NCBI GenBank assembly: GCA_009694465.1
Contig: SHUW01000001.1
Location: forward strand, 3,723 to 67,722
DNA length: 64,000 nucleotides
Reading direction: 5' to 3'
From: Ilumatobacteraceae bacterium
GTDB taxonomy: Bacteria > Actinomycetota > Acidimicrobiia > Acidimicrobiales > Ilumatobacteraceae
The translations under genes and the position numbers were made by a program. Below the pieces are notes generated by a model. It made no database searches. It was not told the origin of the DNA and saw nothing but the letters and a program-made list of their open reading frames with translations. Positions 20,225 to 52,606 of this stretch are shown one piece after another; the stretch's first letter is position 1; each line of letters begins with the position of its first letter.

Positions 20225-21450
20225 GTTTTTCATCACCCGACACATACATCATCGGACCTACCAACCAAGAGATTTTGTTGCCAGAGCCCGAACACTCACC
20301 GGTTTACTACACGCTGATTTCTGTTGATGATCATCTTGTTGAACCGCCCAATATGTTTGACGGTCGCCTCCCCAAAGCCTTGCAAGATCAAGCTCCGCGC
20401 CTCATCGTTAATGAGCGTGGCCACCAAGTGTGGTCCTTTGATGGCCAGATTTTTAGTCAAGTTGGAATGAACGCGGTGGCTGGTCGCAAACCTGAACTGC
20501 GTTCACTTGAGCCAGCGCGTTTTGAAGATATGCGGCGCGGTTGCTGGGACATTGATGAGCGGATCAAAGACATGGATCTCATCGGATGTTGGGCATCACT
20601 CAACTTTCCCTCACAAGTCGCTGGTTTCGCTGGTCGAATCTTTAGCGCTGCAAGCAATCCTGAAGTTGGTTTGGCAACAATGCGTGCTTGGAATGATTGG
20701 CTCTACGAAGAGTGGTGGCAGAAGTACCCCGAGAGGATTATTCCCTGTGGCATTACCTGGCTAGCACCTGGACCTGATGGAACAGCACGCCTCGGTGCCG
20801 ATGAAATCCGCCGTAATGCCGAGCGCGGATTCGTTTCTGTGACCTTGCCTGAACGGCCTCATAACATTGGCTTTCCAAGCCTGTTCAGCGGATGGTGGGA
20901 TCCGATCATCGAGGCCTGCGTCGAGACCGAAACCGTCATTTCCTTGCATGTCGGTTCGTCCGGAATGTATCCCATGCCCGAAGGTGCTCCCGCTCTGCAA
21001 CTCGGAGCCACACTCTTCGGACAGTTGTCATTGAGCGCATGCGCCGAATGGCTATGGAGTGGATACGGCAATCGATATCCCGATCTCAAGATTGCTATGA
21101 GCGAAGGCGGGATTGGCTGGGTACCAATGTTGCTTGATCGATTAGAGAATGTTGTGGACCGCAGTGGCTATGGCGCGAATTGGGACTTACGACCCGCCGA
21201 AATTCTCCGACGCAACTTCTGGTTTTGCACCATTGATGATCCGTCGACAATCGACCTACACGAGGTCATTGGAGATGATCACATCATGGTGGAGATTGAT
21301 TATCCCCATGGCGACAGCACATGGCCTCATAGCCAATCTGTTTTGCGCGATGCGTGGGGACATCTTTCACCAGAGTTACTGCGCAAGTTTTGTTGCGAGA
21401 ATGCGGCAGCTCTCTATCGCCATCCGCTACCTCCACGAATTCTTCCATGA
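20221..21450 (+). CDS. Amidohydrolase-2 (ACMSD-like) family metal-dependent hydrolase
   Basis: Start placed at the GTG at 20221, in a GTGA overlap with the SDR stop. SVDDHLVEP, a C-terminal DYPHGD motif and the overall pattern match PF04909-type proteins. Confidence 0.7.
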   Translation: MSFSSPDTYIIGPTNQEILLPEPEHSPVYYTLISVDDHLVEPPNMFDGRLPKALQDQAPRLIVNERGHQVWSFDGQIFSQVGMNAVAGRKPELRSLEPARFEDMRRGCWDIDERIKDMDLIGCWASLNFPSQVAGFAGRIFSAASNPEVGLATMRAWNDWLYEEWWQKYPERIIPCGITWLAPGPDGTARLGADEIRRNAERGFVSVTLPERPHNIGFPSLFSGWWDPIIEACVETETVISLHVGSSGMYPMPEGAPALQLGATLFGQLSLSACAEWLWSGYGNRYPDLKIAMSEGGIGWVPMLLDRLENVVDRSGYGANWDLRPAEILRRNFWFCTIDDPSTIDLHEVIGDDHIMVEIDYPHGDSTWPHSQSVLRDAWGHLSPELLRKFCCENAAALYRHPLPPRILP

Positions 21451-23108
21451 CCACGGTTGCGCACTTACTTCGCCAGCGCATCGGTGACCACAGCCCTGGT
21501 TACCACTTTGAAGGGCGAACCTATTCTTGGGATCAGGTGGTGACGCAATCTGCTATTCGCGCCTCGATACTCAATAACTTGCTCGATCCCGAAAAGCCGC
21601 GCCACGTGGGTGTTTTGTTGGAAAATACGCCGGATTATTTGTTTTGGATTGGCGGTGCTGCACTCGCTGGGGCATGCATCGTTGGCATTAATCCGACGCG
21701 TCGCGGTGAGGAATTAGCACGCGATATCCGCCATACCGATTGTCAGATGATCGTCAGCGATCAAGCAGGCATTGCGCTATTCAACAATCTTGATACTGGC
21801 GTACCTTCTCAGCGCATCGTTGATATTGAATCGGCGGCTCATACACAGTTAATCAATCAACACAGCAGCGCACACATCCCCGATAGCGAACCTGATCCGA
21901 CGAGTATCCTTTTCCTTCTCTTCACTTCAGGTTCGACGAGTGCCCCTAAGGCAGTTGTTTGCACCAATGAGCGAATGGCCACAGCAAGTATCCGCGCTGG
22001 CGAAATATATGGAGTCACTGCCCACGACATTTGTTATTGCCCGATGCCCTTATTTCATGGCAATGCTCTGATGGCCTGCTGGGGTCCTGCTTTAGCAGTT
22101 GGGGCGCAAGTTGTTTTACGACGAAAGTTCTCTGCGAGCAACTTCATGCTTGACGTGCGCCAGCATGGCTGCACCTACTTCACCTACGTCGGGCGCACCA
22201 TCGCCTACGTTCTCGGGCAGCCAGCCTCTGAACTTGACTCAATCAATCAATTGCGCTTGGGGTTTGGCACCGAGGCCAGCGCTCTTGACCGACAACGCTT
22301 CCTTGATCGCTTCAGATGTCAACTCGTGGAGGGCTACGGCTCGAGCGAAAGTGTTGTCGCCATTATTCGCACGCCTGAGACGCCACCCAATGCTCTCGGC
22401 AAAGAGCGTCCCGACATGGCTGGCAATATCAAAATCGTTGATCCGGAATCAAATATTGAATGCCCACCCGTCATCTTTGATGAGTTTGGAGCGATCACTA
22501 ATCCTCAATGCATTGGCGAGATTGTGAGCTTGACCGGTGGCTCATCATTTGAGGGCTATTACAACAACCACGAAGCTTCCAGCGAGCGTGTCCGCAACGG
22601 TTGGTATTGGACAGGTGACCTGGGGTATAGAGATGCCGACGGTTTCTTTTATTTCGGAGGTCGTAGCGCAGATTGGCTACGCGTTGACAGCGAGAACTTT
22701 GCGGCATCCCCCGTCGAAAACATTATTGCGCGTTATCCCCATGTCGTGATGGCTGCGGTGTATCCAGTCCCCGATCCCCTCACGGGAGACATGGTGATGG
22801 TGGCAATTGAAATGGGGAACGCTACAGATTTTTCACCTGTCGACTTTGACACCTTCATGTCACAGCAACGCGACCTTGGCACCAAGTGGTCGCCACAGAT
22901 CGTGCGCATCACGAAAAACATGCCACTGACAGCCAACAACAAAGTACATAAGCCACCATTACGCAGTGACAAGTGGCGAACCACCGATACGGTTTTCTGG
23001 CGCACCGAACGCAATCAACCTTTGACTCTGATGACCGAGGCCGACAAGGTGGCACTCGAGCAACGTTTCTCCGACAACGGTCGCAGTCACATTTTACTCG
23101 GCCTATAA
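21447..23108 (+). CDS. FadD-like acyl-CoA synthetase (AMP-binding; FadD17/19-like)
   Basis: Start at the ATG at 21447 (ATGA overlap). LLFTSGSTSAPKAV AMP motif and WYWTGDLGYRDADGFFYFGGR. Paralogue of 25490-27166. Confidence 0.85.
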   Translation: MTTVAHLLRQRIGDHSPGYHFEGRTYSWDQVVTQSAIRASILNNLLDPEKPRHVGVLLENTPDYLFWIGGAALAGACIVGINPTRRGEELARDIRHTDCQMIVSDQAGIALFNNLDTGVPSQRIVDIESAAHTQLINQHSSAHIPDSEPDPTSILFLLFTSGSTSAPKAVVCTNERMATASIRAGEIYGVTAHDICYCPMPLFHGNALMACWGPALAVGAQVVLRRKFSASNFMLDVRQHGCTYFTYVGRTIAYVLGQPASELDSINQLRLGFGTEASALDRQRFLDRFRCQLVEGYGSSESVVAIIRTPETPPNALGKERPDMAGNIKIVDPESNIECPPVIFDEFGAITNPQCIGEIVSLTGGSSFEGYYNNHEASSERVRNGWYWTGDLGYRDADGFFYFGGRSADWLRVDSENFAASPVENIIARYPHVVMAAVYPVPDPLTGDMVMVAIEMGNATDFSPVDFDTFMSQQRDLGTKWSPQIVRITKNMPLTANNKVHKPPLRSDKWRTTDTVFWRTERNQPLTLMTEADKVALEQRFSDNGRSHILLGL

Positions 23109-25489: not shown

Positions 25490-27166
25490 TCAGATCAGGA
25501 TTGAACCGCGATTACTTCTTGCAAACTTGGCCCGTAATACATCAGCGTCACTTTTCGTGAACCTCTCAAAGCGAATTTCCTTACCTGTTCGCCACCAGAC
25601 CTGAGCATTCTCATTATTTTCAACATCGTGCCAACGACGCAAAACTAATTCGCGTTTGATCACTTTGTTGGTTTGCGTTAGGGGAAGTTGTTCGACAATG
25701 TGTACGAAAGTTGGCACCCACTTCGGACCGAGATCGGTTTGCTCGCCAAGAAATGCGGCAAATTCCACTGCATCCCATTGCGATCCTGGTTGTAGTTGCA
25801 ATGCGACCATCACCCGATCGCCAATTTCCGGATCGGGGACCCCGTACACGGCAGCCAAGATCACATCAGGATGACGCATCACGATACGTTCAATAGGAGC
25901 ACCGGCAAAGTTCTCTCCGTCAACGCGCATCCAGTCGGCACTACGACCAGCGAAAAAGAAAAAACCATTCGCATCGCGATAGCCCAAGTCGCCGGTCCAA
26001 TAAGCACCATTACGAATTCGCTCGTTATTGGCTTCAACATTATTCCAATAGCCCTCAAAAGTTCCACGCCCTGAATTAACGATCTCGCCTGTGGCCTCCT
26101 CGGCATTCAACAGACGACCATCACTATCAAACTCCGCCGTTGGACACTCCTCCCCCGTGTCGGGACTACGTACCGTGATACCTCCCTGAGGAGAAATACC
26201 CAATGAACCCTGCGGCATTCCTGGAACACGAACAATGGATACTCCGCCCTCGGTCTGACCATATCCGTCAGTGAGTTTGCAACCAAAACGTTCGGCGAAG
26301 CGTTCCAAATCCATTTCGGATCCTTCGTTTCCGAAACCGCGTTGTAACGGATTGTCGGAATCGTCCCCTTGTTCGGGGGTCGCCAAAATGTAGGCCAAGG
26401 GTTTGCCGACATAATTGAAATACGTCGCGCCAAACTTGCGTACATCGCTCAAGAACTCACTGGCTGAAAACTTACGTCGTAAAGCGATACAAGTACCGTT
26501 GACCAAACTGGGACCCCACGCCGTGAAGAGAGCATTGGAGTGAAAGAGTGGCATACAAATGTACGTCGTGTCATCTTGCGTCAGGGCCAAGATGGACTTC
26601 ATCGAAACTGCTACGGCACCCAACCTCTGGTGACTTGTGATCACAGCTTTCGGAGCACCGCTAGTACCTGACGTAAAGAGCAAGAGAAATGTGGCTGCCG
26701 GGTCAACGGGACAATCCTGCGCTGATGGCAGTTCTGCGCCGAGATAAGAGTCCACGAGATCAAGATAATCCTGCGACTCAGTCACAAAAACAGAGCCGTT
26801 AGCGTCGCCGAGATCAAGACCATCAAGCAAAGCCATCTGATGTTCTTCGGTGATCACGATCTGACAGGCGGTGTGAACAATATCGCGCGCTAACTCGACC
26901 CCACGACGAGTTGGGTTAATGCCCACGACTACTGAACCCGTCACCGCTGCAACGCCCAGCCACATCGTAAATTCTGGGGTGTTGTCCAGCAAAACACCGA
27001 TATGGGGCGGTGTGTCGCGGGGTCTCTCCGCTAAGACTTTGCGCCACAGCGCAGCCCGAGCGGCAACTTGCACGCACCATTGGCGATATGTCATCGAAAT
27101 TTCTTCAAAGCGAATCGCCACATTGTCATCATCGGCGCGTGCCCGCACATGATCGGCGAAAGTCAT
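25490..27166 (-). CDS. FadD-like acyl-CoA synthetase (AMP-binding)
   Basis: Start set at the ATG at 27166 (MTFADHVRA...), 10 nt after the upstream stop. LLFTSGTSGAPKAV and AYWTGDLGYRDANGFFFFAGR. Confidence 0.85.
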   Translation of the reverse strand: MTFADHVRARADDDNVAIRFEEISMTYRQWCVQVAARAALWRKVLAERPRDTPPHIGVLLDNTPEFTMWLGVAAVTGSVVVGINPTRRGVELARDIVHTACQIVITEEHQMALLDGLDLGDANGSVFVTESQDYLDLVDSYLGAELPSAQDCPVDPAATFLLLFTSGTSGAPKAVITSHQRLGAVAVSMKSILALTQDDTTYICMPLFHSNALFTAWGPSLVNGTCIALRRKFSASEFLSDVRKFGATYFNYVGKPLAYILATPEQGDDSDNPLQRGFGNEGSEMDLERFAERFGCKLTDGYGQTEGGVSIVRVPGMPQGSLGISPQGGITVRSPDTGEECPTAEFDSDGRLLNAEEATGEIVNSGRGTFEGYWNNVEANNERIRNGAYWTGDLGYRDANGFFFFAGRSADWMRVDGENFAGAPIERIVMRHPDVILAAVYGVPDPEIGDRVMVALQLQPGSQWDAVEFAAFLGEQTDLGPKWVPTFVHIVEQLPLTQTNKVIKRELVLRRWHDVENNENAQVWWRTGKEIRFERFTKSDADVLRAKFARSNRGSILI

Positions 27167-27176
27167 TACCTCATTC

Positions 27177-29294
27177 TCAGAGTCCACGGGCCACCTCATG
27201 AGCTGAATGCATGGCACCTTCGATGTAGTCAACTGACTTGGCATCACCGATGATGTGTACGGGAACTGACAAGTCTTGCAACGAATCTGCCACATGGGAA
27301 TCTGGATGCACATCCGATGCCACCACCACAGTGTCTGCGCGCACTTCAAATTCTTCCTCGCCAAGGCGGTAACGAACACTCACTGGACTAATGGAGATAA
27401 TTGATGCTTCGCGTATCAAGACAACCCCATGCTTGCTTGCTGCACTCACCGCAGTCCAACGCCTAGGCATTGCCATGGGAAGACCCATGTGCTGACCATG
27501 CTCCAAAACCGTGACGAGGCGGTGCCGTTGCGCTAAAAATTCGGCAAGTTCAAGTCCGACCAAACTCCCACCAATGACAACGACTCGTTTACCCACTGGC
27601 ATCCATGACTTGGAGAGTGTACGCAACCGCGCTGCGCTACGTAATAGTCCGATGGAGCGCCCAGCACTGATCAAACTCCGTTCCAAGCGACTGAGTGATT
27701 GAACATTGGCATCGTCATCTCCTTCGATCAAGGAGCGCAATCCATCGCCAGTCAAAACGTGCGGCAAATCTGCACCAGGGACATCTGGTAGCCCCCGTCG
27801 AGCCCCAGTAGCCACAATCACCTCATCTGGGTTCAATGCTTTGACGACCTCGCTCGTGGCCATTGTCGAGAGCAACACATCAACGCCTAGTCGCTTGATC
27901 TCAAATGTCAGCCAATCGAGAAGTGGCCCGTTGGCTGGGGTCGTCAATTGTGAAAACCACAATGTGCCGCCGAGTCGTGAGCCTTTTTCAATGAGCGTGA
28001 CTTTGGCGCCGCGAGTAGCGGCGACACGGGCCGCCTCCATGCCACCGGGTCCGCCACCAATGACCACGATATGTTTCGCTTTGGACATCGGTGCGAGCAC
28101 TGCAACGCTTTCATTACACAAAGCAGGATTCACTGCGCACTTTGGATTTCCGTCAAAAAAGTTTTGCTCAACGCAGACATAACAATTAATGCATGGTCGC
28201 ACCGATCGATACTGACCGCGCTGAAGTTTGTTGACTAAATCTGAGTCTGCTAATAATTGGCGACCCATGGAAACAAAATCGCAGTCCCCAGCGGCAATCA
28301 TCGCATTGGCCACTTCTGGCAACATCCGACCCACAGCCACAACAGGAATAGTCACATGCTGTTTGATCTTTTTCGCAAAATCGCGGTACTGGGCGACTTC
28401 TGTTGGCAATGGACCTTGAGTGAAGTCAGCGAAGGGATTGTGTGCGTTGGCTGACACATGAATCGCATCTGCACCTGCCTCTTCGATGAAAGCAGCAGCT
28501 CGCGCCGTCTCCTCTGGCCGCAGACCATCCTCAAGGCCATATTCAAAGCCATTCACCCGCACAAGTACTGGGTAGTTTTTGCCAACTACCGCTTTCACCG
28601 CGCGAACTACCTCGCACGTCAAGCGAACACGGTTTTCCAAGGATCCACCCCAGCGGTCCTCGCGTTTGTTGTATCCCCGCGAGAGAAATGATGACAACAA
28701 GTAACCGTGAGCGGCGTGAATTTCTATTGCATCAACGCCCCCTAATTGCACCCTTCGGGCTGCTTGAGCAAATTGATCGATGACCCATGCCAGGTCATCT
28801 TCGTCGGCAACTTTGTGGGTGGCTTTTTTTCCTTGTGTGGCGGTTGCCAAAGCCATCAACTCTGACATTGGATTATCGCGTAGGGCGCTCATATCCATCT
28901 GGCCTTCTAACAACGAAGGCACCAGTTGTGGACGCCCTTGCGCCACATCCACACTTGCAGTCTTTCCATGGTGACATAACTGCATACATAACTTGCCGCC
29001 CGCAGCATGTACCGAATCAGCCAAGCGTCGAATGCCAGGAATAAAACGGTCATCCGAAAATGCTGGCTGGTGAAGTGAGGTCGCTCCTACCGGCCAGGCC
29101 ACCGCACCCGTTCCGGTAATCACCATTGCTGTCCCACCTGCCGCTCGCGCACTGTAGTGGGCAATCTCGCCGTCACTCATTTCACCGTCAACACAGAGAT
29201 TCATATCCATCGCGGGCATCAGCACCCGATTGGATAACTCAAGCCCAGCAATACGCCCCGGCGATAAAAGGGAATCAAAAGATGGAGTACTCAT
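27177..29294 (-). CDS. OYE-domain NADH:flavin oxidoreductase fused to an FAD/NAD(P) domain (2,4-dienoyl-CoA reductase FadH / BaiCD-BaiH family)
   Basis: N-terminal old-yellow-enzyme TIM barrel, the Cys cluster CINCYVCVEQ...KCAVNPALC, then VVIGGGPGGMEAA and VVIGGSLVGLELAE dinucleotide motifs. Confidence 0.85.
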   Translation of the reverse strand: MSTPSFDSLLSPGRIAGLELSNRVLMPAMDMNLCVDGEMSDGEIAHYSARAAGGTAMVITGTGAVAWPVGATSLHQPAFSDDRFIPGIRRLADSVHAAGGKLCMQLCHHGKTASVDVAQGRPQLVPSLLEGQMDMSALRDNPMSELMALATATQGKKATHKVADEDDLAWVIDQFAQAARRVQLGGVDAIEIHAAHGYLLSSFLSRGYNKREDRWGGSLENRVRLTCEVVRAVKAVVGKNYPVLVRVNGFEYGLEDGLRPEETARAAAFIEEAGADAIHVSANAHNPFADFTQGPLPTEVAQYRDFAKKIKQHVTIPVVAVGRMLPEVANAMIAAGDCDFVSMGRQLLADSDLVNKLQRGQYRSVRPCINCYVCVEQNFFDGNPKCAVNPALCNESVAVLAPMSKAKHIVVIGGGPGGMEAARVAATRGAKVTLIEKGSRLGGTLWFSQLTTPANGPLLDWLTFEIKRLGVDVLLSTMATSEVVKALNPDEVIVATGARRGLPDVPGADLPHVLTGDGLRSLIEGDDDANVQSLSRLERSLISAGRSIGLLRSAARLRTLSKSWMPVGKRVVVIGGSLVGLELAEFLAQRHRLVTVLEHGQHMGLPMAMPRRWTAVSAASKHGVVLIREASIISISPVSVRYRLGEEEFEVRADTVVVASDVHPDSHVADSLQDLSVPVHIIGDAKSVDYIEGAMHSAHEVARGL

Positions 29295-29313: not shown

Positions 29314-32142
29314 TCATCGCTCGGAAGTATTGCTGCGTTCGATAGCCCGATCATCGGTCCCCAAATAACTGGCGATCACGGCCGAGTTGCTGCGAATTGA
29401 CATTGGGTCACCCTCGGCGATCACTTGGCCCGCTTCAAGGCAATAGATTCGATCTGAAATCGCCATAACCATTGGCATGTCATGTTCAATGATCAAAATC
29501 GCGGCCCCGAGATCCTTCTGGATCATGCGAATGAGTGGGCCAAAGGCTTCGGTTTCGCGCTGTGCGACTCCTGCTGTTGGTTCGTCAAGAAGCATCAATT
29601 TAGAGTCCAAGGCGATCAATGAACCAAGTTCAACAATGCGTCGCGTGCCAGTGGATAATTCGCCCATCAGTGAATCGGCATAACGACCGAGTCCTAGATA
29701 CGTAATGATTTCCTCGGACTCACGCCGCTTACGACCCTCAGCGCGAGGTGATGGTGGCAGGCCTAATAACGATGGAACAAGTAACGAACGTTGTCGCGAT
29801 TCAAGAGCCACCATTAATGTTTCGCGAACAGTCAGCGAACTGAAAAGTTTGGCATTCTGGAATGCACGCCCTTGACCAAGGCGGGCACGCTGATGGGCGG
29901 ACATTGAAGAAACATCTTGACCAAATAGTTCAATCACTCCCGAAGACGGCAGGAAACCGGAGAGAGCGTTGACAATCGTTGTCTTGCCAGCACCATTTGT
30001 TCCAATCAGACCCACAACTTCACCAACACCCACTGTGAGCGTGACATCATTAACGATGACTCGTCCACCCAAAATAACGCTCAAGCCATTCGCTCTGAGG
30101 GGCACATTCGTTGCATGCGTAGGTTTTGCCGAGGAGCCCAAGGAAGCAACCTCTGCACCTTCTTGACGAACAGGTGGCTTCCATCCATTTCGACGAGCAA
30201 TACCAGACAATAAGTTGTCACGCACCGAGTGCACGATAGAAATCAAACCACTAGGGAAATACAGCAACACAATGAGCATGCCGAATCCACTGGCGAACAA
30301 CTCCACTTGCTTCGTGCCGTCGAAAACCATTGGCACAGCGATGATCAGCAAGGTTCCAAGAACGGCACCAGTGATTGAACCAATGCCACCGACAACGGCA
30401 ACCGCCACGATTCGTAGCGACTCGTCAAAGTCAAACAGTAATCCATCGACTTTAAATTGAGCGTTGCGCGCTACCAAAGGCAGTAGTCCACCAGCGAGAG
30501 CGGCTAGTCCACCGGACACTGCGAATGCCAACAATTTGGCACGAGCCGGAGCCACCGTGTAGGCCGCTGCCGCCAACTCGTTGTCACGGGTCGCAATGAT
30601 TGAGCGCCCGATTCCAGTGCGGCGGATTCGCCACACAACCAAGATCGCCAAAACGGCAATGAACAAGCAGAAGTAATAGATGCCGTCGAAGTCCTTGCCC
30701 TGAACGGTCCAAAACAATAAGCGGAAGCCCTTCATACGATCAACATTGAGTTGCGCCGAACCTCCGCCACCCGGAGCGAATCTTTCAGCGACAATGAACC
30801 ATGAGCGAATCGCTAAACCGAAACCAAGCGTGACAACAGCGAGATATAAACCCTTCACTCGTAAGGCTGGGATGCCCACGATGACTGCGGCCAGCACACC
30901 CCAGGCGACACCGATTGGCAAGGCCACGAGATATGGCAATGAATTGGCGTAGTAAATCGTCAGGTACGAACCGAGGGCCACAAAACCAAATTGACCTAAT
31001 GACAATTGCCCGCCCCAACCCGTCACCACAGTCACGGACAACGCAATGATCAAATACACAGGAACTGCTGCAAACTTCAGTATCTCACTCGGCTTGTCAA
31101 CCTGACTGGGCACCACGAGAGCAATCGCCGCCAGTAATAGGAAGCCAAATAGCGTCAATGATCGGTACAGCGGATGACGTGTCAACTCCACACGGGCAGA
31201 GCGAACTTTTGAAGTGAGTTGCCATGACTCATCACGCATTGATTCCGAACGACCGAGAGTAAACAAAACCGCCACGAGAATCACAAATAACGTAGCGATA
31301 TTGGCACCTTTGGGAAGGTCGCCTCCCAAAGACCATGTGACAAGCATTCGGTCAACGACACCAGCCAAAAGTCCACCAACGAGAGTCCAGCCGAATGATT
31401 TCATCCGCCCGACCATGGCAGCGATGAGCGATAACAACAACAACTTTGGCCCTAATGCATTTTGTACTGAGGCCAGCGATCCGCCTTGAAGCGGAGCGAT
31501 GAGAAGCGCGCTAAGTGCTGCTAGAAGTCCGCCAAGAGCCCACACTTTCGTGGAAACAGAACGCACACCGATGCCTGCCAATCGAGCCGCAGGAAAGTTG
31601 TCTGCGGTAGCTCGTACCTGCATCCCAAAATGGCTGCGATGGAAAAGCCAACCGAGAAAAAGCATCAACACTGGCACCACTAACAACACGGTCAGTTGTG
31701 GTCCAGTCAGCGTGAGTCCAGCAATCTCCCAACTCCCGCCGATGAGGACTGGAAAAGTCACGCTTGTTGCTTGTTCGTCGGGAATCGGTAAGCGCAATTG
31801 CAACAACTGCACAACTTGAGTCAGACCTAAGGTGGCAACGAATAACAACAGTCGTGGTTGAGTGAATAGTCGGCGTAAAACAAGTTCAGCAGCGACTCCG
31901 AGAACCACACCACAGATCAATGCAAGAGGCAATGACAAACCGTAAGAAACGTTGTAACGGATCTGCAGTACAGCCATGACATATCCGCCGAAGGCACCGA
32001 TTTGTCCTTGAGCGAAGTTGATCACTCCAGTTGCTCGATAGATCAACAACAATCCGAAAGCCACGAGGGCATACACCAAACCTTGAATCAAACCATCAAG
32101 CAGAATGTCTCCAGAAAATGTCAGGGCGATCATTGAACTCAC
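29314..32142 (-). CDS. Triple-fusion branched-chain-type ABC component: LivH-like permease + LivM-like permease + LivG-like ATPase
   Basis: aa 1-~290 are LivH-like (GLVYALVAFGLLLIYRATGVINFAQG). aa ~330-~650 are LivM-like (GWGGQLSLGQFGFVALGSY). The C-terminal NBD carries GTNGAGKTT, LSTGTRR and LLDEPTAG. Confidence 0.85.
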   Translation of the reverse strand: MSSMIALTFSGDILLDGLIQGLVYALVAFGLLLIYRATGVINFAQGQIGAFGGYVMAVLQIRYNVSYGLSLPLALICGVVLGVAAELVLRRLFTQPRLLLFVATLGLTQVVQLLQLRLPIPDEQATSVTFPVLIGGSWEIAGLTLTGPQLTVLLVVPVLMLFLGWLFHRSHFGMQVRATADNFPAARLAGIGVRSVSTKVWALGGLLAALSALLIAPLQGGSLASVQNALGPKLLLLSLIAAMVGRMKSFGWTLVGGLLAGVVDRMLVTWSLGGDLPKGANIATLFVILVAVLFTLGRSESMRDESWQLTSKVRSARVELTRHPLYRSLTLFGFLLLAAIALVVPSQVDKPSEILKFAAVPVYLIIALSVTVVTGWGGQLSLGQFGFVALGSYLTIYYANSLPYLVALPIGVAWGVLAAVIVGIPALRVKGLYLAVVTLGFGLAIRSWFIVAERFAPGGGGSAQLNVDRMKGFRLLFWTVQGKDFDGIYYFCLFIAVLAILVVWRIRRTGIGRSIIATRDNELAAAAYTVAPARAKLLAFAVSGGLAALAGGLLPLVARNAQFKVDGLLFDFDESLRIVAVAVVGGIGSITGAVLGTLLIIAVPMVFDGTKQVELFASGFGMLIVLLYFPSGLISIVHSVRDNLLSGIARRNGWKPPVRQEGAEVASLGSSAKPTHATNVPLRANGLSVILGGRVIVNDVTLTVGVGEVVGLIGTNGAGKTTIVNALSGFLPSSGVIELFGQDVSSMSAHQRARLGQGRAFQNAKLFSSLTVRETLMVALESRQRSLLVPSLLGLPPSPRAEGRKRRESEEIITYLGLGRYADSLMGELSTGTRRIVELGSLIALDSKLMLLDEPTAGVAQRETEAFGPLIRMIQKDLGAAILIIEHDMPMVMAISDRIYCLEAGQVIAEGDPMSIRSNSAVIASYLGTDDRAIERSNTSER

Positions 32143-34394
32143 GCGCCCTCTCCTGACAAGAAAACGGCACGCAGTAGGTCATCGCGCTCGAGTAAGTCTT
32201 TCGCTGGACCTTCAAACATGACCTGTCCGCGTTCCATGAATACCGCCCGATCGGCTATGGCCATTGCCACATTGAGGGACTGTTCAACAATGATCATGGT
32301 GATCCCCTGATCTTTCAGTCTCTCCACGATCTTCAAGATGTCTTGCACAACAACGGGTGCGAGTCCGAGCGATAATTCGTCAATGCACAATAACTGCGGC
32401 TCAAGCATGACCGCTTTAGCGAGAGCAAGCATTTGTTGTTGTCCACCCGACAGCGAACCTGCGCGTTGATCGCGGCGTTCATCAAGCATCGAGAAAGTTC
32501 CGTAAACAAGAGCCAATTTCTCTTGGCGCTGTGCTGAATCAGGTATCTGGCGACTCCACAAGGCCAAGTTTTCTGCCACAGTCATTGAACTAAAGACAGC
32601 CTCACCACCGGCAATATGGACCATGCCCATTTGCGCGCGATATTGAGGTTCGACCAAAGTGATCGTCCGACCATTCATCCGTACGACGCCACGGTCGGGC
32701 ATCACCAAACCAGAAATCGCGCGCAGGATTGTGGACTTACCCGCCCCATTGGTTCCCAGTAGTGCCAGTACTTCGCCGCGGCGAACATCAAAACCAACGT
32801 CAAAGAGAACCTGCAGATTTCCATAACTGACATCGATATTGCGAACCTGAAGCATCGGAACATTGTCAGGGTCGCCAGCAATGCGTGCTAACTCAACTTG
32901 TTGCTCGCGCAATTCGCTCCTTGTCAGCGCAATATCGCGATTCATATAGCGACTTCCGTAGATAATCAATAATCCGCCGAGAAGAGCTGCTGGGGGCACG
33001 ATCGCAGTCAATGCAGTGCGCTCTCCGTGAGCATCCGATAGCGCCCCAGCGAAAAGTCCACCGAAGAAACCGCCCATCAAAAAGATGTATACCCCGACCA
33101 TCGCAAAAGCTTGAGAACGCATTTGGTACGGGATGATTGCAGAAATTGATGGTCCCACCTGGGTAAATGCGGCTCCTTGAAAAGCAAAACCGATGGTTGT
33201 TAAAGCGATCATTACTGCGGGACTGTGAAAACGCAATCCAACAGTGACAAAAACTCCATAGAGCACAATGCATGCACCCATCATCCGTAGAGCCGATGAG
33301 GGGTTCTTACGAAATAGTTTTTCCCCAATACGGCCAGCTATTGGTATCGCAATGAGAGCCCCCGACCAAGTAATCGCTCCAATCCAACCGCGCTTGCCGG
33401 CGTTATAGCCATAACTGTCTTCAAGTAAAAGATTGAATGCTCCAGGAACTGCAATCAAAGCGAAACCAAGAACGCCGATACCCACAACTAGAAAATAAAA
33501 AGTCCGAACTTTTTTCAATCGTTGAAAGGCCGCTGACAAAAGTACTGGCGGCTCAGATTGCGCGATAACGGCTGTCTCGCCTAAAAGCGCAATTTGTTCT
33601 TGTTGACCGCGACTCGGTTCTTTGAGCGATAGCGACCACAAAATGGTGAGTCCCGCAGGAATAAGAAGCGCCAGAAAAACAACTCTCCAGTCACCGGCGT
33701 CATCGCCCGCAGCGACAACGACGGCACCTGCAAATAGTGGACCGAGAACTTGTCCTAAGGGCCGACCTAAAGCCTCAATGGCGAAGACGCGAGTGCGCAC
33801 GCCGAGGGGATATTGGTCAGCTACCAAGGAAGGAGCAATGGGCACGCGCGCCGAAGCACCCAGACCAGAGCCGGCGCGCGCCAAACCCATCTGAAATGTA
33901 TTGACCACTACCCCGGTCAAGCCGGCGAAAGCCATCCATAAGGCACCAGCGGCGCTGAGCACCCGCACCCTGCTTCGCCGATCGGCCAACCACGCAAAAG
34001 GAAGGGTCGCCAGAACAAGAACCACGCCGCCAAAACTCTGCAACCCTAAAAGCACAGTGTCTGAGACACCGAGTGAGGCCTGGATATCGGGACCAAGCAC
34101 CTGCATTGCCACTCGATCAAACTCTTCAAAGACCGTAAATAGCAACAACACCGTGGCGATGCTCCAACCCCCACTGCGCAAACCATGACGTAAGGTCATC
34201 ATCTCCCCTGGAGATGATGCGTCGACATCTGAAGTGTCTTGGGAATCAGAAAGTCGCTGTTCAAGAAGGTTTTCCTGGGCGGTGACGATCGAACTGGCCA
34301 ACGCCGCGGGCGACACATGAGTGTTCGCTGTTGATTCAGTTTCTTGCACAATCGCCCCGCTTTCCCGCCAAACCTTAGCCGCCGCGCCCGGCAT
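32139..34394 (-). CDS. Fusion protein: MFS-type 12-TM domain + LivF-like ABC ATPase
   Basis: The N-terminal ~500 aa are hydrophobic with the MFS loop motif WLADRRSRVRV. The C-terminal NBD carries GTNGAGKST, LSGGQQQM and CIDELSLGLAP. The start could instead be the internal ATG at 34202. Confidence 0.8.
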   Translation of the reverse strand: MPGAAAKVWRESGAIVQETESTANTHVSPAALASSIVTAQENLLEQRLSDSQDTSDVDASSPGEMMTLRHGLRSGGWSIATVLLLFTVFEEFDRVAMQVLGPDIQASLGVSDTVLLGLQSFGGVVLVLATLPFAWLADRRSRVRVLSAAGALWMAFAGLTGVVVNTFQMGLARAGSGLGASARVPIAPSLVADQYPLGVRTRVFAIEALGRPLGQVLGPLFAGAVVVAAGDDAGDWRVVFLALLIPAGLTILWSLSLKEPSRGQQEQIALLGETAVIAQSEPPVLLSAAFQRLKKVRTFYFLVVGIGVLGFALIAVPGAFNLLLEDSYGYNAGKRGWIGAITWSGALIAIPIAGRIGEKLFRKNPSSALRMMGACIVLYGVFVTVGLRFHSPAVMIALTTIGFAFQGAAFTQVGPSISAIIPYQMRSQAFAMVGVYIFLMGGFFGGLFAGALSDAHGERTALTAIVPPAALLGGLLIIYGSRYMNRDIALTRSELREQQVELARIAGDPDNVPMLQVRNIDVSYGNLQVLFDVGFDVRRGEVLALLGTNGAGKSTILRAISGLVMPDRGVVRMNGRTITLVEPQYRAQMGMVHIAGGEAVFSSMTVAENLALWSRQIPDSAQRQEKLALVYGTFSMLDERRDQRAGSLSGGQQQMLALAKAVMLEPQLLCIDELSLGLAPVVVQDILKIVERLKDQGITMIIVEQSLNVAMAIADRAVFMERGQVMFEGPAKDLLERDDLLRAVFLSGEGA

Positions 34395-34415
34395 TTCTGA
34401 TGGTCAATCAGAAGT
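34393..34415. promoter_or_regulatory. Candidate operator, copy 2 (ATTTCTGAT-GGTCA-ATCAGAAGT)
   Basis: Abuts copy 3 in the divergent gap between the MFS-LivF gene and the SBP gene. Confidence 0.6.
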
Positions 34416-34436
34416 TTCTGACGGACCGTCAGAAAC
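34414..34436. promoter_or_regulatory. Candidate operator, copy 3 (GTTTCTGAC-GGACC-GTCAGAAAC)
   Basis: Perfect 11+1+11 palindrome. The arms are identical to those of copy 6 at 43868. Confidence 0.7.
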
Positions 34437-34512: not shown

Positions 34513-35961
34513 ATGAAGAAATCCCGTTTTATACTCGCAGTCCTTGCCAGCTCCGCGCTCATAGTGGCGGCATGCGGTGGCAGTGATGGCGGAACAACAG
34601 AAACCGAAGCGCCTTCAACAGAAGCGCCGTCAACCGATGCTCCTGTCACTGAGGAGCGGACTGCATCAGATATCGGTGTCACTGCTGACACCATCAAAAT
34701 CGGTGTCGCAATCTCTGACCTTGAGGCCATTCGTGCCATGGGAATTTCGATTCCCGAAACTTTGACGACAAAGCATTTATTTGATCGTTGGGATGTCTTC
34801 GTACAAAAGTGGAACGCTGCTGGCGGAATTAACGGTCGCATGATTGAGCTTTTCCAATTGGTATGGAATCCGCTTGACCCGAGCACCTTTGACACCCTGT
34901 GCGCTGCTGCAACAGTTGACAACGAGTTGTTCATGGTCATCAACGGAACAGGTCTCTCGTCCGTTGCTCGCAAATGTCTGTTAGATGCTGGTATGCCGAT
35001 CATGTACGGCGACGTGATGTCACTCAGCGAACTCGAAACGGGACTAGCTATTTCCCTTGCTGCTCCAGCCGAAGTCATCGGCAGCGCAGGAGTCAATGCT
35101 TGGATTGGAAGCCCAGAGGCTGTTGCTGGTTCAACCGTTGGTATTCTCTCCAACAACTCCCCAGCAGTTCAAGCCGCCGGCAAAGCCGCTGAGCAAACAT
35201 TGATTGATGCTGGCTTCACAGTTGAACTCATTGAAATGAACTCAACTGGTGGCGATTCAGCCGCAATCAATGAAGAAGGCGCCGCTGCCGTAGGTGTTTT
35301 CCAAGCTAAGGGTGCGACTCGCGTCTTTGTGGCTTCACCGTTCACGGAAAACACTGGCTTTTGGACAGCCGCAGCCAGCGCTGGTCTTACTTTCTCCTTG
35401 CTGGACACAAGTTCATCGGGCTGTTCGGCATTTGGTCTGAGCCGTGCGCCTGCAGCGGCTGTTGGCAGTGAGTGCATCACCACCTACGACCATATGACGG
35501 ACGGCGAGACAATTCGTCCCGACACTGCATTTGAAGCCGAGTGCCGTACGTTCTTTGACGAAAGTTTTGAAGCGTACTTTGGCAATAAGTCGTACCCTGG
35601 CGTACCAGCAGGTCAAATCCTCACGGACACCGCTGGCAAAGTCGTGAGTTCGGATTATGCCCCTCAAGAATGCGCCTTAGCTAATATTTTGAATCTTGGT
35701 CTGACGGCTGCTGGAGTTAACCCAACTCGAGCTTCAACGCTGGCAGCGATTCTCAACTTGAGCGAAGTCCCACTCGCTGTTCTTGCTGGAGGATCTGGCG
35801 GGTTTGCGCCAGGCAAGGCCTACGCCTCGAATGCCGTGCATACCGTGATCGTCACTGCAGCAACCGTTGACACGCCTGCTGATGCCAACGGTTTATACAA
35901 CGGCTGTGCTGCTCCAGTGAACTGTGGAGTAGTCATCAGTGATTGGGTGCCAATCAGTTAG
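34513..35961 (+). CDS. LivJ/Peripla_BP_6-like ABC substrate-binding lipoprotein (large, 482 aa)
   Basis: Start at the ATG at 34513, after AGGGGGAG. Lipobox LIVAACGGSDG. A Thr/Glu/Ala/Pro linker precedes a type I periplasmic binding fold pattern. Confidence 0.85.
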   Translation: MKKSRFILAVLASSALIVAACGGSDGGTTETEAPSTEAPSTDAPVTEERTASDIGVTADTIKIGVAISDLEAIRAMGISIPETLTTKHLFDRWDVFVQKWNAAGGINGRMIELFQLVWNPLDPSTFDTLCAAATVDNELFMVINGTGLSSVARKCLLDAGMPIMYGDVMSLSELETGLAISLAAPAEVIGSAGVNAWIGSPEAVAGSTVGILSNNSPAVQAAGKAAEQTLIDAGFTVELIEMNSTGGDSAAINEEGAAAVGVFQAKGATRVFVASPFTENTGFWTAAASAGLTFSLLDTSSSGCSAFGLSRAPAAAVGSECITTYDHMTDGETIRPDTAFEAECRTFFDESFEAYFGNKSYPGVPAGQILTDTAGKVVSSDYAPQECALANILNLGLTAAGVNPTRASTLAAILNLSEVPLAVLAGGSGGFAPGKAYASNAVHTVIVTAATVDTPADANGLYNGCAAPVNCGVVISDWVPIS

Positions 35962-43867: not shown

Positions 43868-43890
43868 GTTTCTGACAGACTGTCAGAAAC
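43868..43890. promoter_or_regulatory. Candidate operator, copy 6 (GTTTCTGAC-AGACT-GTCAGAAAC)
   Basis: Perfect 11+1+11 palindrome, 49 nt upstream of the first gene of the igr-like operon. Confidence 0.7.
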
Positions 43891-43938: not shown

Positions 43939-45150
43939 ATGCACATCGGCGACACACCAGAGGAAGCGCTGTACCGCCAAGAGGCCCGCTCTTGGCTAGA
44001 AGCCCATGCCGCTCCCCGCGATCCCAGTGGTGGAACCTCAGATCACTCCCATAATCTCGCCGATCACATCCAAGAGTGCAGGAATTGGCAGCGCGTTTTG
44101 TATGACCACGGCTGGTCAGGCATCACTTGGCCAGCGCAGTACGGAGGGAAAGGTGCGAGTGCCATTCAGGCTGCCATCTTTGCTGAGGAGCAAGCGCACT
44201 TTGATGTGGCAACAGGAGCCTTCGCTATCTCCATTGGCATGGTCGGCCCCACTCTCATTGCCCATGGCACACCTGAGCAACAGCAAAAACATTTGGCACC
44301 GATTCTCAAGGGTGAGGAAGTGTGGTGTCAGTTATTCAGTGAGCCTGGAGCAGGAAGCGATCTCGCCTCACTGGGAACACGTGCTGTGCGCGATGGTGAT
44401 GATTGGATCATTAACGGACAAAAGGTGTGGAACAGTTTTGCCCAATTCGCTGAATACGCGATCTTATTAGCGCGTACAGATGTGGATCTCCCGAAGCATG
44501 CCGGCATCACTTACTTCATTCTCGATATGAAATCACCGGGAATTGAAGTCCGTCCGATTACTCAGATCACTGGGGTGCAACACTTCAACGAAACTTTCTT
44601 CACAGATGTACGCATTCCCCACGCCAACATTATTGGCGAACTCAATGCTGGTTGGAAGGGCGCTCAAACGACTTTGATGAACGAACGCAATCACATCGGT
44701 TCAGGTGGAAATTGGTCTGTTGATCAGTTGATTGATCTAGCCCAGCGGCGAGGTCTGTCTAGTCACCCACATTTTCGCCAAGGTCTTGCTCTCGCGCACT
44801 CCCGAGCCGAAACATTGAAGTACATGGGTCTCCGAATGCGTACCGCTATGAGCCAAAAACGTATGCCCGGACCTGAGGCCCTGACTTTGAAATTGGCCTA
44901 CGCCAACCACTGGCGACTCACAGCAGACCTTGCATCAGAGATTCTCGGCGCGGACATCATGTTGTGGGGCGACGATGCTGCCGAGGACAATCAGTGGGGT
45001 CAACACCTACTCAGTCAATTCGCTATCAGAATCGGTGGCGGCACGGATGAAATTCAACGCAATATCATCGCCGAACGCGGTCTTGGTCTGCCACGCGAAC
45101 CGCAAAATGACAAAGATGTACCGTGGCGTTCATTGAGTAAAGTTGGATGA
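43939..45150 (+). CDS. Acyl-CoA dehydrogenase (FadE family)
   Basis: Three-domain ACAD pattern. The C-terminal GGGTDEIQRNIIAERGLGLP is typical of actinobacterial FadE proteins. Confidence 0.9.
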   Translation: MHIGDTPEEALYRQEARSWLEAHAAPRDPSGGTSDHSHNLADHIQECRNWQRVLYDHGWSGITWPAQYGGKGASAIQAAIFAEEQAHFDVATGAFAISIGMVGPTLIAHGTPEQQQKHLAPILKGEEVWCQLFSEPGAGSDLASLGTRAVRDGDDWIINGQKVWNSFAQFAEYAILLARTDVDLPKHAGITYFILDMKSPGIEVRPITQITGVQHFNETFFTDVRIPHANIIGELNAGWKGAQTTLMNERNHIGSGGNWSVDQLIDLAQRRGLSSHPHFRQGLALAHSRAETLKYMGLRMRTAMSQKRMPGPEALTLKLAYANHWRLTADLASEILGADIMLWGDDAAEDNQWGQHLLSQFAIRIGGGTDEIQRNIIAERGLGLPREPQNDKDVPWRSLSKVG

Positions 45151-46184
45151 GGGAGAGTCTGATGAGTACGACCGCCGCTGACATTATTGTTGATATCACT
45201 CCCCAGGAAAAAGAATCTTTTTATGCGCGGTTACAGGCGTTTGTAGGACTCGAAATTGGCGAACCTGTCGTCGCTCCCGACGAAGTCAACGCCGCCATGA
45301 TTCGCCATCTTGTCGAGACTGTCGGCGATGACAATCCGATATACACAAATACGGAACTTGCTGCAACAAGCATTCATGGTGGGATTGTGGCTCCACCAAC
45401 AATGTTGCAGGCGTGGGTGATGATGGGCTTCAAGGGAACCAAACTCACCGGAGAAAGCCCCTACGAGAAAATGAATCAACTGCTCTTTTCACGTGGATTC
45501 ACCAGTGTTTTAGGCACTAATAGCGAGCAGACCTATGAACGCTATCTACGCCTTGGTGATCGGCTCACCCTGCGCACAACCATCGACTCAATTAGCAACG
45601 AGAAATCTACGGGCCTCGGTACTGGTCATTTCGTTGGCACCCGACAGGATTATTACGACGCCGATAAGCAGTTGGTTGGCTCAATGTTGTTCCGTATTTT
45701 CCGCTTCAAACCTGCCGCCAAAGCCCCTGTCAGCAAACCTCGACCAGTGCGACCGCGCCCTGCTACAACTCACGACAACCAGTGGTGGTTTGATGCTCTC
45801 AATGAAGGGGTTTTGTACGCCCAAGGTTGCGGTCAATGCCAGCAGGTTCGCTTCCCCACTGGTCCGATGTGCCCGTCTTGCCACAGTCTGAAGTGGACCA
45901 AAGTTGACATGCCACTTTCAGGGTCGATCCATAGTTTCGTCGTCGCGCACTACCCACAAGTTCCAAGCTTTGATTACCCATTACCAATTTTGCTCGTTGA
46001 TCTTGATCCTGTAGATGCCCCTGGCGGCGACAAAATTCGCATGGTGATGAACTCCGCCGACACCGATCTTGAGTCTCTTGTTATCGGAGCGCGAGTACGG
46101 ATTGACATTCGATCAACGGATCCCGATATGAAACTCCCCTTTGCCATTGTTGAGACCCAGCCGAGTAACGGAGCAAGCGCATGA
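45147..46184 (+). CDS. MaoC-N-terminal-type hotdog domain fused to DUF35 (Zn-ribbon + OB fold); ChsH2-like hydratase subunit
   Basis: N-terminal FAS1/MaoC_N-like hotdog, a Pro/Lys linker, then CGQCQQVRFPTGPMCPSCHS followed by an OB-fold segment. ATGA overlaps on both sides. Confidence 0.75.
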   Translation: MRESLMSTTAADIIVDITPQEKESFYARLQAFVGLEIGEPVVAPDEVNAAMIRHLVETVGDDNPIYTNTELAATSIHGGIVAPPTMLQAWVMMGFKGTKLTGESPYEKMNQLLFSRGFTSVLGTNSEQTYERYLRLGDRLTLRTTIDSISNEKSTGLGTGHFVGTRQDYYDADKQLVGSMLFRIFRFKPAAKAPVSKPRPVRPRPATTHDNQWWFDALNEGVLYAQGCGQCQQVRFPTGPMCPSCHSLKWTKVDMPLSGSIHSFVVAHYPQVPSFDYPLPILLVDLDPVDAPGGDKIRMVMNSADTDLESLVIGARVRIDIRSTDPDMKLPFAIVETQPSNGASA

Positions 46185-47305
46185 ACTTTGATCTTTCCGA
46201 AGAACAACAAGTTATTAAAGATTTAGCCCTGCAAATTTTTGAGGGTCAGGCCACCGTCGAACGAATCAAGGCTGCAGAAAAAGGTGACGGCTTTGACCGT
46301 CAGATGTGGGAGCAGTTATCGGCTAGCGGTATCCCTGCGCTGTGTGTTCCTGAAGAACACGGTGGTAGCGGCATGGGTGCCGTCGAACTTTCATTGGCCC
46401 TCATGGGTCAGGGCCGCTATGTCGCTCCCGTTCCATTGTGGAGCACGGGAGTTGTGGCATTAGCGATCACCGATTTTGGTTCACCCGAACAACGAGAAAA
46501 GTATCTCCCTGCTATTGCCTCAGGCACACTCATCACCACGATCGCTCTCGCTGAATCTGGAGCCAATGATGTGATGCGACCCACAGTCACAGGCACCATC
46601 GCTGGCAATCACATTACTTTGCGCGGCTATAAGCCCGCCGTGCCATTCGCTCAGCACGCAGATATCGCATTAGTGCCCATCACGCTGTCCGATAGAAGTG
46701 GTGAACAACTTGCCATCGTTATTGTTGATCTCCGTCAACCAGGAGTGACAGTTACTTCCGTAAAAACCACAAATCACGAACCACAGGGAAACATTGACTT
46801 TGATCTCACCATCGCCACTGAGAACCTTCTCGGGTACGGAACAGACACTGATGGTCGCGAAGCTCTTCGTTCAGTTTTCGAACATTCACTGACCGCTCTT
46901 GCTGCTCTGCAAGTGGGCGTCTGCGAAGGTTCATTGGCCTTTGTTTCCACCCACCTATCTTCACGTTTCCAGTTCGGTAAACCGTTGGCAGCATTTCAGG
47001 CCACAACTCAACGGGCCGCAGATGCCTACATCACGACAGAGGCGATGCGTGTCACGGCACTCAATGCCGCATGGCGATTGTCAGAAGGCTTTGATGCTCG
47101 ACGCGACGTTGCTGTGGCTGCCTATTGGGCCAGTGAAGGCGCTCAACAAGTCGTGACCGCTGGACAACACCTGCATGGTGGCATCGGTGCAGATGTTGAT
47201 TATCCCGTACATCGTTATTTTCTCTGGGGCATCCAACTCGCCAGTGTTCTCGGATCGGCCAGTGCTCATCTCGCCCGCCTTGGCAACCTGATCGCGCGGA
47301 CCTGA
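46181..47305 (+). CDS. Acyl-CoA dehydrogenase family protein (possible second subunit of a heteromeric ACAD)
   Basis: ACAD N- and C-terminal domains with the C-terminal QHLHGGIGADVDYPVHRYF motif. Translationally coupled to its neighbours. Confidence 0.8.
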   Translation: MNFDLSEEQQVIKDLALQIFEGQATVERIKAAEKGDGFDRQMWEQLSASGIPALCVPEEHGGSGMGAVELSLALMGQGRYVAPVPLWSTGVVALAITDFGSPEQREKYLPAIASGTLITTIALAESGANDVMRPTVTGTIAGNHITLRGYKPAVPFAQHADIALVPITLSDRSGEQLAIVIVDLRQPGVTVTSVKTTNHEPQGNIDFDLTIATENLLGYGTDTDGREALRSVFEHSLTALAALQVGVCEGSLAFVSTHLSSRFQFGKPLAAFQATTQRAADAYITTEAMRVTALNAAWRLSEGFDARRDVAVAAYWASEGAQQVVTAGQHLHGGIGADVDYPVHRYFLWGIQLASVLGSASAHLARLGNLIART

Positions 47306-47307
47306 TA

Positions 47308-48916: not shown

Positions 48917-48920
<4 letters not shown>
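47727..48920 (+). CDS. Thiolase-fold lipid-transfer protein (Ltp2/SCP-x-like; possible retro-aldolase or thiolase)
   Basis: AAIVGIGATEFSK N-terminus and INTHGGQLGEAYIHGMNG C-terminus are typical of Ltp-type thiolase-like proteins. GTGA overlap with the upstream gene. Confidence 0.8.
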
Positions 48921-51353
<2,433 letters not shown>

Positions 51354-52583: not shown

Positions 52584-52606
52584 CGTTCTGACATAGCGTC
52601 AGAAAC
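52584..52606. promoter_or_regulatory. Candidate operator, copy 7 (CGTTCTGAC-ATAGC-GTCAGAAAC)
   Basis: Lies 11 nt upstream of the minus-strand ACAD start. TTCTGAC-N5-GTCAGAA is a perfect core. Confidence 0.65.

Follow-up and report, generated by a model that had tools for sequence, protein, structure and literature searches.

A Liv-type ABC importer condensed into two polypeptides, one of which joins an MFS domain to the LivF ATPase, in Actinobacteria

What does a membrane domain from the major facilitator superfamily (MFS) do when it is built into the ATPase of an ATP-binding cassette (ABC) importer? ABC and MFS proteins, the textbook cases of primary and of secondary active transport, are usually regarded as distinct machines, and the question is raised by two adjoining genes in a 64,000-nucleotide stretch of DNA from an Ilumatobacteraceae bacterium (GenBank assembly GCA_009694465.1, contig SHUW01000001.1, positions 3,723 to 67,722; hereafter, the window; GC content about 52%). 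The initial annotation of this DNA proposed that a Liv-type importer has been condensed here into two polypeptides, a LivH-LivM-LivG fusion and an MFS-LivF fusion, and the proposal is borne out by domain searches, by structure prediction and by comparative genomics. Our best overall explanation, held tentatively, is that the two chains form a conserved five-domain importer in which the MFS domain provides a second path and the substrate is an amphipathic acid.

Both open reading frames (ORFs) lie on the minus strand, exactly at the coordinates where they had been placed. The MFS-LivF ORF (32139..34394) encodes 751 amino acids (aa) from an ATG start, and the LivH-LivM-LivG ORF (29314..32142) encodes 942 aa when read from its GTG start, whereas initiation at an ATG three codons downstream would give 939 aa; the two ORFs overlap by 4 nt (GTGA), or are spaced by 5 nt with the ATG start. 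In the 942-aa protein, Pfam recognizes two stretches of BPD_transp_2 (6e-58) along with ABC_tran (8e-26) and BCA_ABC_TP_C, and NCBIfam assigns residues 13–293 to UrtB/LivH, 302–636 to LivM and 682–929 to LivG, so that the two domain maps agree on the triple fusion that had been claimed. The LivH/UrtB-type permease half, delimited with the help of an AlphaFold2 (AF2) model, occupies residues 1–300 (31243..32142, minus strand; UrtB 1e-23, LivH 2e-13), and the LivM/UrtC-type half residues 301–655 (30178..31242, minus strand; LivM 3e-31). They meet in a basic linker of low model confidence, at about residues 297–317. The LivG-type nucleotide-binding domain (NBD) and its BCA_ABC_TP_C tail make up residues 680–942 (29314..30105, minus strand), with the motifs GTNGAGKT (Walker A), LSTGTRR (signature), LMLLDE (Walker B) and IEH (H-loop).

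The 751-aa protein begins with a cytoplasmic extension of 66 residues (34197..34394, minus strand) in which one amphipathic helix is predicted (residues 29–53). The MFS domain follows at residues 67–480 (32955..34196, minus strand), with 12 transmembrane (TM) helices arranged 6+6. A helical connector, residues 481–512 (32859..32954, minus strand), leads to the LivF/UrtE-type NBD at residues 513–751 (32139..32858, minus strand); in alignments of relatives, D487 of the connector is invariant and R504 is conserved. In Pfam the membrane part matches MFS_1 with 103 bits (1.6e-29; the cut-off is 33) and ABC_tran falls at residues 532–673, while the top NCBIfam models for the NBD are UrtE (1e-58) and LivF (3e-54). 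The domain search, which the initial annotation had named as a possible refutation, returned the N-terminal region as clearly MFS, and together with NCBIfam and the AF2 helix arrangement it upholds the reading of this ORF as an MFS domain of about 12 helices followed by a LivF-like NBD. The loop motif WLADRRSRVRV, singled out in the initial annotation, lies at residues 135–145 and is indeed MFS motif A. The LivF NBD carries Walker A GTNGAGKS, signature LSGGQQQ and Walker B LLCIDE, and all three motifs are intact in both NBDs.

These features identify the system as an importer of the LivHMGF/UrtBCDE (HAAT) family, probably dependent on a binding protein, with five domains on two polypeptides. 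Its permease consists of two BPD_transp_2 domains, one of LivH/UrtB type and one of LivM/UrtC type, and of its two NBDs one is of LivG/UrtD type and bears the BCA_ABC_TP_C tail, while the other is of LivF/UrtE type; the ATP-binding motifs of each are intact. The fifth domain belongs to the MFS by its MFS_1 score above threshold, its 6+6 helices and motif A (ADRRSR) in the TM2–TM3 loop. The helix count and the C-terminal NBD would place both termini of the MFS domain in the cytoplasm. E. coli LIV-I (LivJ/K-LivHMGF) and cyanobacterial UrtABCDE (HAAT, TC 3.A.1.4) are built from the same four core domain families and depend on a Peripla_BP_6-type binding protein, as the present system probably does too; unlike the present system, they have four separate membrane and ATPase proteins, where here there are two chains, an extra MFS domain and a highly divergent substrate-binding protein (SBP).

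A scan with one genome per species found 50 related loci, and in all the gene pair is present in more than 50 independent assemblies. LivH-LivM-LivG directly follows MFS-LivF in every related locus with enough DNA, both fusion junctions are in frame in all 44 intact loci, which come from many independent assemblies, and both neighbours of the transporter ORFs, a flavoenzyme gene and an acyl-CoA synthetase gene, are syntenic in most related loci. Each of the two proteins forms more than 700 clusters at 90% identity in a public collection, and the MFS-LivF protein is present in the cultured Ilumatobacter fluminis, Jiangella alba, J. muralis and Jiangella sp. DSM 45060. The gene pair persists in metagenome loci whose MFS domain is only about 30–45% identical. 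We also searched the MFS domain alone against 1.8 billion representative proteins. Of the representatives listed, 79 extend over the C-terminal end of the domain: 46 have a LivF NBD (five of these also a LivG), 10 have short cut tails, and 23 stop near TM12; some of the last resemble genuine stand-alone MFS proteins, only at 34% identity or less. Gene order and domain order vary in a few loci: L055 (68-5202) encodes LivH-LivM (650 aa) and then MFS-LivF-LivG (1061 aa), L056 is similar, and L068 (2-5533) has the reversed order LivHMG, a 172-aa ORF and MFS-LivF. In all variants the MFS domain is N-terminal to LivF, LivH and LivM are adjacent, and LivG is on either chain. Because the MFS-LivF and LivH/LivM linkages are fixed while LivG moves, the five domains behave as one unit, and on these comparisons the linkage between the MFS domain and the ABC parts appears ancient.

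The named organisms among the matches are Acidimicrobiia, Ilumatobacter and Jiangella, all actinobacterial apart from titles that we judge mislabelled. These titles belong to metagenome-assembled genomes (MAGs) called ‘Bifidobacterium breve’ or ‘uncultured Bifidobacterium sp.’ (loci L003, L010, L012 and L030, together with L020 and L039, which carry the latter name); their gene content and their 80–99% identity to acIV/Ilumatobacteraceae MAGs indicate that the names are wrong. The JGI and NCBI pipelines already annotate both fusions, under names for branched-chain amino acid transporter components, and full-text searches of the literature found no description or experimental study of an MFS-NBD fusion. 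Both fusions are thus already known as automatic annotation, with no study of them in the literature searched, in keeping with the earlier suggestion that such architectures are actinobacterial, annotated and uncharacterized.

Is the MFS domain a decaying remnant? We estimated the ratio of nonsynonymous to synonymous substitution rates (dN/dS) against close relatives in which dS is unsaturated. The ratio is 0.03–0.06 for the MFS domain, 0.04–0.09 for LivF, 0.00–0.07 for LivH, 0.00–0.05 for LivM and 0.05–0.08 for LivG; it is relaxed in the LivM-LivG linker (0.12–0.40) and mostly 0.2–0.6 in the N-terminal 59 residues of MFS-LivF (0.10 in one comparison). Purifying selection on the MFS domain is as strong as on the ABC core, and a dN/dS as low as in the ABC parts argues that the domain is no decaying relic.

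The AF2 model of MFS-LivF, built with 62 homologues, has a mean predicted local distance difference test score (pLDDT) of 87.4 and a predicted template modelling score (pTM) of 0.84. It shows twelve helices in two sets of six, separated by a central loop (residues 255–296), and then the NBD. TM12 runs unbroken as a single helix (458–507) to the NBD, and the connector region 481–520 has block-mean pLDDT values of 86–93. Helices were taken from the AF2 secondary structure, because Kyte-Doolittle hydropathy miscalled them, giving nine MFS helices instead of twelve and over-calling the NBD. The LivF NBD matches 1ji0 best in Foldseek, with a template modelling score (TM-score) of 0.92 over the target. 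Residues 1–66 are modelled at pLDDT of about 36–67, are poorly conserved, and are absent or variable in distant relatives. The helix at 29–53 was considered as a second tether to LivG, which would have suited a rocker-switch drive; its poor conservation, relaxed dN/dS, low pLDDT and absence from several relatives do not support this.

The 50 matches that Foldseek listed for the full MFS-LivF model are all ABC proteins, aligned mainly through the NBD and so uninformative on the MFS half; we therefore searched the PDB with an MFS-only profile. The best matches are the Spinster transporters (TC 2.A.1.49): human Spns1 at 2.4e-23, HnSpns (6E8J) at 1.4e-22 over 377 of 440 positions, and SPNS2 at 1.5e-16, followed by the next family, the anion:cation symporter DgoT, at 1.9e-13. 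Human Spns1 is a lysosomal lysophospholipid transporter. The residues that matter for function in HnSpns are Asp41, Arg42, Arg122, Glu129 and the relay Asp87-Arg91-Asp142 (PMC9440201), and we transferred them to the present protein by HMMER alignment. The relay corresponds to D138-R142-D193 and is invariant in all three alignments. The TM1 pair Asp41/Arg42 corresponds to D93/R94; position 93 is Asp or Glu in 68–85% of members (Asp alone in 56–58%), and E90 is a second conserved acidic position beside it in TM1. Arg122 of TM4 corresponds to R173, kept in 84%. Glu129 is the intracellular protonation master switch of HnSpns, and the E129Q mutation traps that protein in an inward-closed state (PMC9440201). 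Its counterpart here is A180; relatives have Gln, Ala, Lys or Arg, and among 87 sequences (25+62) the position is never Glu and is Asp once. By these comparisons the domain is Spinster-like without the full canonical Spns residue set, and it differs from Spinster proteins both in the Ala at the Glu129 position and in its covalent fusion to an ABC ATPase. Given that the position is altered and that E129Q traps HnSpns inward-closed, the MFS-LivF family may rest in a conformational equilibrium unlike that of the Spinster proteins.

The permease gives a different structural picture from that of the initial annotation, which had called the system a type I importer. The AF2 model of LivH-LivM is of moderate confidence (pLDDT 70.5, pTM 0.69), and phmmer against the PDB found no chain matching the permease. 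The model's sole significant Foldseek match is FhuB (from the ferrichrome importer FhuCDB, 7LB8; E 3.8e-5, TM-score 0.51–0.53, 693 columns), which spans both halves; PsaC chains (from the manganese importer PsaBC, 7KYP) come next, at E 0.03–0.2, and the 50 matches listed for this model include no type I permease. FhuB and PsaC share only about 12% sequence identity with LivH-LivM, have no fused NBD or MFS domain, and belong to the Pfam families FecCD and ABC-3, against BPD_transp_2 here; FhuB, too, unites two permease halves in one natural fusion protein. As we take both to be type II importers, the modelled fold does not support the type I label.

What, then, might the MFS domain do? We infer that it is functionally active and coupled to the ATPase, and it has retained the motif-A charge relay on which alternating access in MFS proteins depends. 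A possible role, which we put forward with reserve, is that of an active second translocation path, tied to the ATPase, for the same class of amphiphile or for its metabolites. Such a path would carry, for example, the membrane-partitioned form of the amphiphile, and in the modelled structure the MFS cycle would couple mechanically or allosterically to the ATPase cycle through the rigid helix from TM12 to LivF.

Somewhat more doubtful is a non-transporting MFS domain, either an anchor or scaffold that holds LivF next to LivHMG or a sensor that tunes the ATPase in the manner of a transceptor or of trans-inhibition. Anchoring LivF would complete a membrane-tethered ATPase pair, since LivG is already anchored by its fusion to LivM, and the constant linkage of the MFS domain to an NBD, through a rigid helix, fits this role, as does the absence of the Spinster master-switch Glu across the family. 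Regulatory domains on the NBDs of ABC importers are moreover established, in MalK and MetN, which counts in favour of a sensor. An anchor, however, has no need for 12 helices held at a dN/dS of 0.03–0.06, nor for an invariant motif-A relay, a conserved TM4 Arg and acidic residues in TM1, and canonical Liv systems assemble without any anchor.

Export by the MFS domain, as an efflux or safety valve for excess detergent-like substrate or pathway intermediates while the ABC part imports, is improbable. The lysosomal lysophospholipid transport by Spns1 counts against this role, and because Spns1 is the best-scoring solved relative, membership of the Spns family does not fix the polarity of transport. 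An exporter fused 1:1 to an importer ATPase would also run a futile cycle unless tightly gated. For export speak SPNS2, which exports sphingosine-1-phosphate, and the proposal, from resistance assays with the bacterial MsSpns, that Spns proteins are broad-specificity efflux pumps (PMC9440201); in Rhodococcus jostii, steroid-acid catabolism transiently excretes toxic intermediates, which are taken up again by one ABC and one MFS transporter (PMC8399759).

Less probable still is a hybrid of primary and secondary transport, in which the MFS rocker-switch is driven or gated by the ABC ATPase and not by protons. Room for it is left by the loss of the proton-switch Glu from a domain that still has the motif-A relay, by the rigid helix, with its invariant Asp, from TM12 to the NBD, and by locus L055, in which both NBDs sit on the MFS chain and LivH-LivM has none. 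In this scheme TM12 and the C-terminal MFS half would shift as LivF closes on LivG with ATP, and one ATPase pair would power two different membrane translocators.

The second question is what the importer carries. Gene context favours an amphipathic organic acid over branched-chain amino acids, a correction to the substrate that goes with the Liv label of the initial annotation. Immediately downstream of the transporter genes, at a distance of 17 nt and in the same orientation, lies a 705-aa Fe-S flavoenzyme of OYE/FadH type (27177..29294, minus strand; Pfam Oxidored_FMN and Pyr_redox_2; NCBIfam BaiCD-like at 4e-120, under the cut-off), and after it, again co-oriented, an acyl-CoA synthetase resembling CasI and FadD17 (25490..27379, minus strand). 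The synthetase reaches 607 bits (2e-182) against the steroid-22-oyl-CoA synthetase (CasI) model, whose cut-off is 900, and its true start is probably near 27199, judged from a 569-aa homologue. The window holds a second CasI-like acyl-CoA synthetase at 21354-23108 on the plus strand, which scores 685 bits on the same model (607 for the operon copy; both below 900).

A palindrome, TTCTGAC-N5-GTCAGAA, connects the transporter to a second gene cluster. Two tandem copies occupy the divergent promoter region upstream of MFS-LivF (34395..34434), a third copy (TTCTGACAGACTGTCAGAA, 43870..43888) sits just upstream of the genes at 43939-51353, and a fourth with three mismatches (52586..52604) separates a divergent acyl-CoA dehydrogenase gene from a RibD_C gene, giving four matches in the window where 0.03 would be expected by chance. 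In 32 related loci, among them L003 (5961-5979), L018 (1067-1106) and L033 (257-275), an exact copy also stands upstream of the MFS-LivF match, at a distance of about 40–350 nt, and we regard the palindrome as a candidate operator. The seven window ORFs of 203–242 aa that were tested contain no regulator-type Pfam domain, such as TetR. The igr/FadA5-like run at 43939-51353 encodes two acyl-CoA dehydrogenases (PimC/PimD-like), a cytochrome P450, a ChsH2-like hydratase (FAS1_DH_region, zf-ChsH2 and OB_ChsH2_C), an Ltp2-like lipid-transfer protein and a steroid 3-ketoacyl-CoA thiolase; the last two, at 690 and 608 bits respectively, exceed their NCBIfam cut-offs. Its gene content suggests side-chain degradation of steroid or isoprenoid type in a freshwater acIV actinobacterium.

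The SBP is encoded on the plus strand, divergently from the transporter (34513..35961, 482 aa); the ORF as listed, from 34321, is over-extended, and the real start is at 34513. It is a lipoprotein (MKKSRFILAVLASSALIVAAC…) with a signal peptide, the lipobox IVAAC and, after the Cys, a long tether rich in Thr, Glu, Ala and Pro (GGSDGGTTETEAPSTEAPSTDAPVTEE). Its relationship to Peripla_BP_6 is distant (7.5e-7; 29.6 bits, just below the cut-off of 31.7), and NCBIfam gives no match. In the PDB, phmmer finds only weak matches to chains resembling the Leu/Ile/Val-binding protein (E 0.009), which the SBP exceeds by about 100 aa (482 against 380–403 aa). The syntenic SBP genes of relatives do carry Peripla_BP_6 matches (faint in L002). 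Measured against four full-length close relatives, the SBP has a dN/dS of about 0.08–0.13, and its evolution outpaces that of the membrane complex two- to threefold.

We consider it fairly probable that the substrate is an amphipathic carboxylic acid, steroid- or bile-acid-like or otherwise hydrophobic, and not leucine, isoleucine or valine, because the MFS domain is Spinster-like, the acyl-CoA synthetase and flavoenzyme are syntenic, and the palindrome is shared with the cluster of FadA5, Ltp2 and ChsH2 type. In such a pathway the SBP would capture the acid, LivHM and the LivG and LivF ATPases would pump it inward, formation of a CoA thioester would trap it, and reduction would follow.

CouPSTU of Rhodopseudomonas palustris, an ABC importer of HAAT type for lignin-derived aromatic acids, is a precedent for Liv-type import of organic acids instead of amino acids (PMC3610893). 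Its host is a proteobacterium, unlike the actinobacterial host here. CouPSTU has separate subunits and no MFS domain. In Rhodococcus jostii RHA1, re-uptake of cholate metabolites needs both CamABCD (ABC) and CamM (MFS) (PMC8399759). This steroid-acid system is also actinobacterial and also combines ABC with MFS, which parallels the steroid-side-chain-type context of our locus; unlike the fusion described here, its components are encoded apart (ro04885-ro04888 and ro05792) and unfused.

That the system is an ordinary LIV-I-type importer of branched-chain amino acids or urea, incidentally fused and with irrelevant catabolic neighbours, is very unlikely. The best NCBIfam models for its ABC parts are indeed LivH/M/G/F and UrtB/C/D/E, and public annotation names branched-chain amino acid transporter components, but all of these scores fall far under the equivalog cut-offs (bits against cut-off: LivG 198/362, LivF 184/441, UrtE 198/286, UrtD 173/304, LivM 109/366, UrtB 84/250), which makes the transporter a member of the family that is orthologous neither to its amino-acid systems nor to its urea systems. 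Nor is the SBP recognizably LivJ- or UrtA-like, and no urease or amino-acid catabolic genes adjoin the transporter; the conserved synteny with the acyl-CoA synthetase and flavoenzyme, and the palindrome common to a cluster of β-oxidation and steroid type, speak against an amino acid or urea as well.

Assembly, frameshift or gene-calling artefacts of a MAG are next to impossible as a source of the fusions: database entries of 639 aa with LivM-LivG only, and a separate 300-aa LivH gene in locus L054, would suggest them, but the L054 break falls on unknown bases at the junction (a run of X in the translation), all 44 intact loci keep both junctions in frame, the MFS-LivF protein is present in isolate genomes, and the junction regions show synonymous divergence with low dN/dS. 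Because in-frame junctions occur in every intact related locus, the fusions are not frameshift artefacts, the outcome against which the initial annotation had advised a check, and no relative with intact sequence splits either ORF. A naturally labile LivH-LivM fusion, as the 639-aa entries and the L054 split might suggest, was rejected on account of the same unknown bases and the same 44 in-frame loci. The split in L054 (about 3022-3151) looks like a scaffolding artefact and not a natural variant; this explanation was checked at L054 and would, by extension, hold for the 639-aa database entries (proteins P0490-P0494).

Several points weigh against a second path for an amphipathic acid as the overall explanation. 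The fusion of the MFS domain to LivF could merely serve stoichiometry or assembly, and a classical proton-driven cycle of Spinster type is doubtful, because the master-switch position is never Glu in the family. The two sources from which the substrate is suggested are the gene neighbourhood and a common DNA motif; the CoA ligase and the flavoenzyme score under their NCBIfam equivalog cut-offs, and neither phmmer against the PDB nor NCBIfam returned an informative homologue of the SBP. The neighbours of the transporter also differ in some relatives, so that its specificity probably varies.

The oddity of this locus is real, and its hosts are cultivable. The arrangement defines an extensive family in Actinobacteria, to which freshwater acIV lineages belong as well as the cultivable Ilumatobacter and Jiangella, and the system gives a practicable way into the LivHM-type permease fold, of which phmmer against the PDB found no solved structure. 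The system may indicate an uptake route for amphipathic, possibly steroid-like acids in Actinobacteria. Should the MFS domain prove to be a second pathway linked to the ATPase, it would represent a coupling principle new to membrane transport; as a sensor or an anchor, it would still add a novel type of regulatory module to ABC importers.

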